64,000 nucleotides of DNA from a virus. The position numbers and the translations under genes were made by a program. Shown here in pieces: positions 1-63,390 of this stretch (position 1 is the first letter of the stretch; every line of letters starts with the position of its first letter). The stretch is taken from positions 1-64,000 of IMG/VR virus record IMGVR_UViG_3300020048_003770. The stretch is one strand, 5' to 3'. The notes beneath the pieces are model-generated. The model saw only the letters and a list, made by a program, of their open reading frames with translations. It searched no databases and was not told where the DNA came from.

Positions 1-116
1 TCCCTGATGCCCTGCAAGCTTAGATTTCATGTTTTTCATGATTTCAAGCAACTATCAGGGCGGTCTCATAAGCCGCTGCGTAAGCCTAGGGAGTTCGAAT
101 CTCCCTCCCGCCACCA
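1..116 (+). tRNA. 3' part of an atypical tRNA, probably CAT anticodon (Met/Ile2), with a large hairpin insertion; 5' end outside window
   Basis: T arm GGGAG-TTCGAAT-CTCCC, acceptor strand TCCCGCC-A-CCA, arm GCGGT-CTCATA-GCCGC, extra hairpin CCCTGAT...ATCAGGG. Confidence 0.5.
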
Positions 117-209: not shown

Positions 210-289
210 ACAGGAGTATAACCTCTCTCTACGAAAGAGTTGAAAGTTTAATTGGATACATGCGGGTTCAAATCCTGTCTCCTGTACCA
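210..289 (+). tRNA. Non-canonical tRNA-like gene, probable anticodon ACG (Arg), anticodon hairpin nested in D arm
   Basis: Acceptor ACAGGAG/CTCCTGT-A-CCA, T arm GCGGG-TTCAAAT-CCTGT, hairpin CTCT-CTACGAA-AGAG precedes D-loop-like TAATTGG. Confidence 0.6.
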
Positions 290-46609: not shown

Positions 46610-46702
46610 ATGAATATGAACAAGCAAATAATAGGTATAGGAATAGCGGGAGCCTGCGGCGGAGCTGCAAGGCTACGGACTTTCTATGTCTGTTTATGCT
46701 AA
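46610..46702 (+). CDS. Ile(ATA)/Gly/Ala-rich attenuator leader peptide MNMNKQIIGIGIAGACGGAARLRTFYVCLC
   Basis: Codons 7-20 are I,G,A except one C; all four Ile are ATA; downstream tRNA-Ala, -Gly and a TAT-anticodon RNA. Confidence 0.87.
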   Translation: MNMNKQIIGIGIAGACGGAARLRTFYVCLC

Positions 46703-46724: not shown

Positions 46725-46760
46725 AGAGAGTCCGATAAACTAATGGTTTGTCGGACTTTT
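46725..46760 (+). terminator. Attenuator terminator 4
   Basis: AGAGTCCGATAAAC/GTTTGTCGGACTTT; 5' arm pairs alternatively with CGGACTTTCTAT 46676-46687. Confidence 0.85.
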
Positions 46761-46970
46761 GCTTTATAAGGAGAAAATGGGTAGGAAAAAGAGTCAAAAA
46801 AGGAAAAACACGAATGTCGTAAAGAACGAAATGGTTTTTCTTAGGTGCTTTGAATTGCTGGGAGCATAAACGGTTCTGTCTTCTCTAAAACAAAGGCGGA
46901 ACCGAATGAAACAGGAAGGAAACAATTTTATGAATATCAAACGCAAGGACTGTATAAATGTGAAAGATGG

Positions 46971-47701: not shown

Positions 47702-47937
47702 ATTTTAAATTAAGGATATTATGTTTAAATCATATAAGATCTTAAAAGAATGCAAATTAGAAGAGTCTAATTTGATTCAAATGTTGCGTGAAAATAAAGA
47801 AGGATTGACTATAGATAGGATTATGTTAATGGGTTTTGACAAATGGAACTCGCTTAACAAATTATTGGCTATGCAGAAGGTTAAAGGGATTAAACAAAAA
47901 AATGATCCTTTTGTTAAAGAGACTGTTATCGTTTCAT

Positions 47938-48022
47938 GCGGGAGTAACTCACCAATCTTATGAATTGGGCAGTATAATTAGAGTAATGGTGCATGTTGGT
48001 TCAAGTCCAATCTCCCGTACCA
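47938..48022 (+). tRNA. Non-canonical tRNA-Ile(TAT), anticodon hairpin nested in D arm
   Basis: GCGGGAG/CTCCCGT-A-CCA, T arm GTTGG-TTCAAGT-CCAAT, hairpin CCAAT-CTTATGA-ATTGG inside ACTC/GAGT. Confidence 0.7.
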
Positions 48023-54058: not shown

Positions 54059-54192
54059 GGGGAAGTAGCCAAATGGAAAGGCACTATTATTCGGAAATAG
54101 CAAACAGCGATTATTACTTAAATTGTTTAATAGCAATTTCTTATCTAAACGCTTACAAACTTTTGGGGGTTCGATTCCCTCCTTCCCCACCA
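54059..54192 (+). ncRNA. tRNA-like/Y-like RNA 1 (about 70-nt module in variable arm)
   Basis: GGGGAAG/CTTCCCC-A-CCA, D arm, T arm, module AGCG...ACTT-stem-CTTAT...CGCT-TACAAAC. Confidence 0.8.
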
Positions 54193-63270: not shown

Positions 63271-63390
63271 GCCAAAGATGCTTAGGAGTTCGATTCTCCT
63301 TCGTTCCATTTGACGGGACGGATGGTTCACAAAGTGCTACGGTGACACGGTTCGCTACTGTATCGGGTTCGATTCCCGACTTTGGCTCCA
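63271..63390 (+). ncRNA. Expanded tRNA-like RNA with two T-arm-like hairpins
   Basis: GCCAAAG/CTTTGGC-T-CCA; AGGAG-TTCGATT-CTCCT and TCGGG-TTCGATT-CCCGA. Confidence 0.6.

Follow-up and report, generated by a model that had tools for sequence, protein, structure and literature searches.

The locus examined here raises the question of whether a tRNA gene whose parts follow one another in an order other than that of the cloverleaf can encode a working elongator tRNA, and, if so, which codon it would serve. The gene lies on the plus strand at positions 47938–48022 of the window, by which we mean the whole stretch of DNA analyzed, 64 kb in length and corresponding to the first part of a 161-kb virus record with a G+C content of 34% and an estimated completeness of 87%. 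ARAGORN finds 18 tRNAs in this record, all of them within the 64-kb window; the gene at 47938–48022 was not called in the ARAGORN run on the window and was not reported in either of two whole-window Rfam runs. Its parts are the following:

47938–47944 (+): 5′ strand of the acceptor stem, forming seven pairs with 48012–48018, with a G1·U72 wobble; all seven covary in the family described below
47945–47946 (+): U8 and A9 (TA), invariant in 57 of 57 family members
47947–47950 (+): 5′ strand of the enclosing helix, ACTC, pairing with 47981–47984; by connectivity, D-stem positions 22–25
47951 (+): single spacer base equivalent to position 26, one base in all family members
47952–47968 (+): anticodon arm with a perfect 5-bp stem (CCAAT/ATTGG), which covaries, and the 7-nt loop CTTATGA
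47958, 47959–47961, 47962 (+): U33, anticodon TAT and G37, in the loop CTTATGA
47969–47971 (+): start of the linker, GCA, 5′ strand of helix H, pairing with 47990–47992
47972–47980 (+): A/U-rich linker loop containing TATAAT; sequence and length vary in the subtype (5–10 nt after helix H)
47981–47984 (+): 3′ strand of the enclosing helix, GAGT; by connectivity, D-stem positions 10–13
47985–47990 (+): D-loop equivalent AATGGT (A14, A15, U16, G18, G19, U20); the base after GG tracks amino-acid identity
47990–47994 (+): TGC, 3′ strand of helix H, then AU, positions 47–48; U48 could pair with A15
47995–48011 (+): T arm with a 5-bp stem and the loop TTCAAGT (TTCRANY type)
48012–48022 (+): 3′ strand of the acceptor stem, discriminator A73 (48019) and encoded CCA (48020–48022)

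An earlier note on this DNA had described a 5-bp stem with a 7-nt loop CT-TAT-GA, enclosed by ACTC/GAGT and followed by AATGG and the T arm, with no arm at the normal anticodon position. All of this is borne out: the stem at 47952–47968 is perfect, 47947–47950 pair with 47981–47984 in a helix that covaries across the family, AATGG and the T arm are found at 47985–47989 and 47995–48011, and no arm stands where the cloverleaf has its anticodon arm, since the interval between the enclosing helix and the T arm contains no hairpin. The D hairpin of the cloverleaf is missing as well, only 5 bases separating UA from the anticodon stem. The linker between the anticodon arm and GAGT is A/U-rich and 12 nt long in total; beyond it the order is GAGT, then AATGGTGCAT, then the T arm, with UAAU(N)GG directly after the enclosing helix at 47984–47989 and CAU before the T stem at 47992–47994. 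Three features had been overlooked: G37, which is unique to this copy, the extra 3-bp helix formed from the long linker, which creates a pseudoknot, and the retention of the leader, discussed below, in two relatives whose slot contains no Ile tRNA. Promoter and terminator scans near the gene remained at chance level. A TATAAT is present within the linker itself (47974–47979), and roughly one in two long-linker members likewise has TATAAT or TAATAAT in its linker. A −35 element matching the TATAAT at 47974–47979 was not found.

Our own scan for a T arm together with a matching acceptor stem uncovered a second gene of the same layout:

210–289 (+): copy 1, with a short linker, anticodon ACG (Arg) and A after GG; 83.8 bits with the family model (R1)

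Copy 1 sits between tRNA-Asp and tRNA-Trp and was missed by both ARAGORN and Rfam. A retrieval pattern was then defined from the features located 5′ of the T loop that both copies share. It required TAAT..GG and CAT before the T stem, left the base after GG free and placed no constraint on the enclosing helix; TAAT..GG and CAT are universal among the members, but this follows from their being required by the pattern. Matches were obtained in 109 IMG/VR contigs, most of them with the same order of parts, and the 93 matches that could be parsed reduce to 60 distinct sequences, 57 of which were aligned (alignment A1). Among prokaryotes, represented by 185,579 species with one genome each, 10 contigs matched, all 10 belonging to metagenome-assembled genomes (MAGs). 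An exact 20-mer covering T arm and acceptor sequence had no match in IMG/VR. One IMG/VR virus contig (L030) and one MAG contig assigned to Candidatus Paceibacterota (L134) each carry a family member and are both 362,763 bp long; the latter is probably a huge phage binned as a bacterium.

The three aligned pairs of the enclosing helix are paired in 99.4% of cases over the 57 sequences, with compensatory changes at all three and four pair types at each; the copy at 47938–48022 has four Watson-Crick pairs, one more than most family members. The structure as a whole has a covariation score of 0.90, compared with 0.21 for shuffled alignments (none of 500 as high) and 0.10–0.18 for slid controls, and RNAalifold predicts the enclosing helix de novo. 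In their native order none of the 57 sequences is called by ARAGORN; after one block, consisting of one D-stem strand and the D-loop, has been moved, all 57 are called, each with the expected anticodon. This block test cannot distinguish the two strand polarities. The family model gives 63.3 bits for the 47938–48022 copy, which was part of the training set, and 58–70 bits for long-linker members outside the training set; the canonical tRNAs of the window reach at most 22 bits. Judged from the aligned sequences, the rewired layout is more than chance, and the rearranged topology proposed in the earlier note is supported by the family covariation and by the rule at position 20 that is presented below. 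The rewired tRNA is a conserved design common to many phages and missed by gene finders.

Amino-acid identity was considered next to structure. At the base following GG, which the retrieval pattern had left free, the 10 members whose anticodon is one for Arg (ACG, TCG, TCT, CCT) invariably have A and the 47 Ile/Met members invariably T (Fisher p = 2e-11, uncorrected for relatedness), and A73 is present in 47 of the 47 Ile/Met members. A20 is the main determinant for ArgRS, the elements listed for IleRS of bacteria include U20 and A73, and t6A37 is reported to be a strong determinant for bacterial-type IleRS (PMC9976931). From this correspondence we infer that the GG motif after the enclosing helix is the D-loop, and a linkage of identity bases to the anticodon is sensible only if the RNAs of the family are charged. 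From the bacterial tRNA-Ile identity set (PMC9976931, Table 1), A35, U36, A38, A73 and U20 are all present in the gene at 47938–48022; the A37 identity element is missing, position 47962 being G. G37 is confined to this copy and to an identical one in contig L114, the other 26 of 27 distinct TAT members having A37. As to demand, ATA makes up 37% of the Ile codons of the phage, or 30 per 1000 codons, and the phage has a single other Ile tRNA, with anticodon GAU.

The genomic slot of the gene was compared in contigs encoding relatives of the downstream protein, which were found via a large protein collection. With the pattern method, no relatives by the neighbouring 291-aa protein and RecD-like protein were obtained from IMG/VR, and a search of INPHARED for close DNA relatives gave matches to ordinary tRNA-Ala and tRNA-Gly only. 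In L114 the gene is identical to that of the window, L116 and L117 have an allele with A37 in the same slot, a canonical tRNA-Ile(UAU) occupies it in L115 and L118, and in L111 and L113 the slot is without a gene while the ATA leader discussed below is retained; judged by the neighbouring protein, no relative is closer than L111 (88% identity). In its D-loop, the canonical tRNA of L115 has the same sequence as the block at 47985–47990. Relatives that carry the gene are approximately 97–99% identical over the local region, and their conservation therefore says little about selection. The assignment as Ile(UAU) is thus supported, as an inference, by A73 together with U20, by ATA usage, by the canonical tRNA in the slot of relatives and by the ATA codons of the leader. 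We consider it likely that 47938–48022 encodes a phage elongator tRNA-Ile(UAU) with a re-threaded core that is used for AUA, with the reservation that fold, processing, charging and decoding are all inferred: there are no RNA, processing, charging or decoding data, the public sequencing runs matched to the stretch supplied DNA contigs only, and the host is unknown.

Of the other explanations, the one that survives best accepts the gene as a member of the rewired family and takes it for a decaying or crippled allele, in which G37 prevents the t6A37 modification and thereby impairs charging or the reading of AUA, the gene being in the course of loss. We regard it as unlikely, without being able to set it aside. 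It draws on G37 being unique among the 27 distinct TAT members, on the empty slot in L111 and L113, on an 80-codon ORF that reads into the gene, and on a 189-bp insertion that interrupts the anticodon loop, after TAT, in at least four metagenome contigs, L141–L144 (L141:971–1159), and in a contig of run X6. Being missing in some relatives and interrupted in the alleles of L141–L144, the gene must be dispensable in some phages. Decay is difficult to reconcile with the state of the RNA itself, however, since all helices are intact, the enclosing helix having four Watson-Crick pairs, and U33, A38, A73 and CCA are retained. The G37 form is moreover found in two independent assemblies, those of the window and of L114. 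The differences from the L116 allele lie in loops or preserve pairing, and three adjacent changes leave the 31–39 pair intact. Finally, anticodon-loop substitutions in the tRNAs of phages are a known adaptation to host nucleases (PMC10264068).

The 189-bp insertion deserves description in its own right. Its first 53 bases are the exact reverse complement of positions 1–53 of the window, which is the start of the phage contig. This partial inverted copy (window 1–53, minus strand) adjoins an incomplete tRNA with anticodon CAT at 54–116 (plus strand), of which the 3′ two-thirds are present, comprising the anticodon arm, a 12-nt variable region, the T arm and ACCA; its 5′ part is lacking, owing either to an interruption of the gene or to an assembly break within a repeat. 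A group I intron was considered and rejected, no Rfam intron match being obtained even at E = 10, and the splice-site rules for an intron fit only the frame that turns the anticodon into CAU. Rfam recognised nothing in the insertion, and no similarity was detected between it and the ends of the transposase gene region of the window or INPHARED phages. We lean towards a small mobile element because there is no intron match, because the only splice frame gives CAU and because an inverted partial copy lies beside another tRNA gene.

The tRNA cluster that contains the gene is preceded by a short ORF and a hairpin:

46610–46702 (+): leader ORF of the tRNA cluster, 30 codons, 1.3 kb upstream of 47938
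46726–46768 (+): terminator-like hairpin with a U-rich tail, −21.1 kcal/mol

Codons 7–20 of the leader ORF specify Ile, Gly or Ala at 13 of 14 positions, and all four of the Ile codons are ATA, a composition that matches the downstream tRNA-Ala, tRNA-Gly and 47938–48022 genes; the leader ahead of tRNA-Ile(GAU) has ATC/ATT in its run. The leader ORF is conserved in L111, L113, L115 and L118. The 5′ arm of the hairpin (46725–46734) can alternatively pair with positions 46676–46685 of the leader, in a duplex of −20.0 kcal/mol. The gap between leader and tRNA-Ala measures about 440 bases with small ORFs in the window and 77 bases in L111. The immediate flanks of the gene were also considered as an ATA-rich leader and rejected, as ATA accounts for only 1 of the 7 Ile codons in the upstream ORF and the spacer on the downstream side is just A/T-rich and promoter-like. 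An ATA-rich leader, which the earlier note had invoked as independent support for a decoding function, does therefore exist, but the support it lends is weaker than had been claimed: it is retained in L111 and L113, which have no Ile tRNA in the slot, and for this reason we treat the leader as supportive rather than decisive.

A second possibility, which we find improbable, is that the RNA is shaped like a tRNA and has its main role elsewhere than in decoding, either as a decoy or nuclease-resistant substitute directed against tRNA-targeting defences or as the ligand of a phage RNA-binding protein. Phage tRNAs can indeed counter tRNA-cleaving defences (PMC10264068, PMC11555353), a rewired core would alter the surface that such enzymes see, and the family is nearly restricted to phages, with 109 viral contigs compared with 10 MAG contigs from 185,579 species genomes. 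It can be added that the same phage has further oddly built tRNA-like RNAs. What speaks for decoding is that the identity elements follow the anticodon, which is relevant only if the RNA is charged, that a canonical tRNA-Ile(UAU) occupies the same slot in relatives, and that the ATA codons of the leader agree with the anticodon; furthermore, nuclease resistance and decoding are not mutually exclusive. The further tRNA-like genes are three in number, two in the window (54059–54192 and 63271–63390) and one elsewhere in the genome (144386–144489), with good acceptor and T arms and with internal insertions of 131, 117 and 101 nt, respectively. The gene at 54059–54192 obtains 46.9 bits with the Rfam tRNA model and is missed by ARAGORN.

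The elongator tRNA-Ile(UAU) that we favor belongs to a subtype with long linkers, and it is the extra helix of this subtype that gives rise to a third explanation. Long-linker members comprise 19 distinct sequences with linkers of 8–13 nt, 17 of them with anticodon TAT and 2 with Arg anticodons. Helix H, which joins bases 1–3 of the linker to the three that precede the final two bases of the connector, is fully paired in 18 of the 19, its middle pair alternating between C:G and G:C, and in the 47938–48022 copy it joins 47969–47971 with 47990–47992. No equivalent of helix H is supported in the short-linker members (alignment A1, inspected by eye). In the present copy helix H crosses the enclosing helix and thereby makes a pseudoknot. 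Its presence accounts for the "variable arm" displayed both by Rfam and by the fold of the single sequence: in a local search restricted to 251 bases, the Rfam tRNA model RF00005 gives 31.1 bits against a threshold of 29 by deleting the D arm and placing a 23-nt insert in the variable region, and the minimum-energy fold pairs 47969–47971 with 47990–47992 and leaves ACTC/GAGT open. For the sequence taken alone, the proposed nested fold has −16.6 kcal/mol compared with a computed minimum of −22.4 kcal/mol, and the overall folding z-score is only −1.66. One might conclude from the alignment and the fold, as well as from the conservation of helix H within the subtype, that the gene encodes a plain D-arm-less tRNA with a long variable arm and that the complementarity of ACTC and GAGT is incidental. 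We hold this to be very unlikely, given the four pair types at each position of the ACTC/GAGT helix in 57 sequences, the four different enclosing-helix sequences found within the long-linker subtype alone, and the short-linker members, which have no variable-arm helix. Since both helices can coexist as a pseudoknot, the D-arm-less reading is incomplete rather than alternative.

Two further observations concern the long-linker subtype and its possible origin. L140:832–1003 (plus strand) contains a tandem long-linker pair, Arg(UCU) and Ile(UAU), from which it follows that the subtype is not restricted to Ile. Three contigs, L021 (2880–2968, minus strand), L070 (10648–10736, plus strand) and L077 (1927–2015, minus strand), each contain a canonical cloverleaf tRNA-Ile(UAU) that ARAGORN recognises and that has an extra D-loop block (TAATTGG ... 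CAT) in its variable region of 22 nt; these tRNAs may represent a duplication intermediate toward the rewired design.

That the gene is a chance resemblance, or a tRNA fragment within the 3′ end of the ORF at 47721–47963, can be practically discounted: the silence of ARAGORN and of the whole-window Rfam runs and the overlap of the ORF with the first 26 bases would be in keeping with it, but the family evidence (109 contigs and covariation) already refutes it, and the ORF has just two other clusters among 5.8 billion proteins and stops that differ inside the tRNA between alleles. This ORF (plus strand, 80 codons) ends at the TGA of the anticodon loop. Its stop is different in L116, a premature stop or frameshift is found in L141–L144, and it is probably not a conserved gene.

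Returning to the re-threaded tRNA-Ile(UAU), we propose that it contains all standard parts and that only the D-domain block 10–21, that is, the 5′ D-stem strand and the D-loop, is placed differently, after the anticodon arm. Since one strand of the enclosing helix is joined to the anticodon stem by one base and the other leads into the D-loop, the arrangement is most simply described as a move of block 10–21 to a point after position 45; the D-stem then joins the bases following U8–A9 with bases beyond the anticodon arm and encloses that arm. Both D-stem strands keep their normal neighbours by this arrangement, so that an L-shape with the usual elbow contacts would still be possible. The contacts expected to be retained are those of GG with the T loop, U8–A14 and A15–U48, and the corresponding G10–C25-like pairs, U8, A14, A15/U48 and G18G19 are all in place; the three-dimensional fold itself remains an inference. 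Helix H, comparable to the base of a long variable arm, would close the domain bearing the transposed block and so produce the pseudoknot. The gene would most likely share a transcript with tRNA-Ala and tRNA-Gly, downstream of a leader-peptide attenuator with many ATA, Gly and Ala codons, its RNA would be trimmed to the encoded CCA end, and the RNA, once charged by the IleRS of the host, would read AUA, a heavily used codon of the phage.

The layout can be compared with several known systems. In comparison with canonical tRNA-Ile(UAU) (RF00005, and the genes of L115 and L118), it has the same 7-bp acceptor stem, T arm, 5-bp/7-nt UAU arm, A73 and CCA, an AAUUGGU-type D-loop, the same genomic slot and, presumably, the same reading of AUA, whereas it has no D hairpin, a D-stem that encloses the anticodon arm, a long linker, an extra 3-bp helix and G37 instead of A37. 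With mitochondrial D-arm-less tRNAs, such as mammalian mt-tRNA-Ser(AGY) and those of nematodes (PMC7609411), it shares the absence of a 5′ D hairpin and the failure of standard finders; in those tRNAs, however, the D-stem and the elbow contacts of GG are gone, and the molecules are shorter and more flexible, whereas the rewired tRNA keeps the stem, the GG motif and a normal length, in a setting of bacterial translation. Phage tRNAs are not mentioned in that review. Allo-tRNAs with 8/4 or 9/3 acceptor/T branches (PMC5389517) are likewise natural non-canonical designs from metagenomes, some of them from phages; they alter helix lengths within the cloverleaf, whereas the rewired family retains 7/5 and differs in how the D domain is threaded. 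Class II tRNAs (Leu, Ser, Tyr) resemble the long-linker subtype in having a short helix between the anticodon and T stems. In the rewired arm, in contrast, the "loop" contains a D-stem strand and the D-loop and pairs back after U8–A9 as a pseudoknot, and the identities of the family, Ile and Arg, are those of class I tRNAs. Permuted and split tRNA genes, as in Cyanidioschyzon merolae and Nanoarchaeum, are processed back to an ordinary cloverleaf RNA. The order of parts departs from the cloverleaf in those genes as it does here, but the rewired gene gives no sign of cutting and rejoining, and its mature RNA itself would be non-cloverleaf. A search of the literature found no description of the rewired tRNA design.

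To our knowledge, the cloverleaf has been treated as universal outside reduced mitochondrial systems. The wider proposition arising from this work is that phages have evolved and widely spread a translation-competent non-cloverleaf tRNA, with block 10–21 placed after the anticodon arm and a pseudoknot in the long-linker subtype, and that the class Ia synthetases of the host (IleRS, ArgRS and perhaps MetRS), as well as EF-Tu and the ribosome, accept it; we see about equal grounds for belief and for doubt in this proposition as a whole. The altered core might also protect the rewired tRNA from host enzymes by which ordinary tRNAs are cleaved or inactivated; that re-threading helps phages to evade defences directed at tRNAs is an idea open to testing, and the design could serve as an orthogonal tRNA scaffold. 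For the phage itself, the sole candidate AUA reader that was found escapes ARAGORN and whole-window Rfam searches; if the proposition holds, phage tRNA counts and the codon-usage arguments built on ARAGORN or tRNAscan would be systematically short for Ile and Arg. Conserved and apparently chargeable tRNAs with re-ordered parts would then demonstrate that more than one threading can lead to the L-shape, and would offer structural biologists a naturally occurring means of testing which links within the tRNA core RNase P, the synthetases, EF-Tu and the ribosome require.
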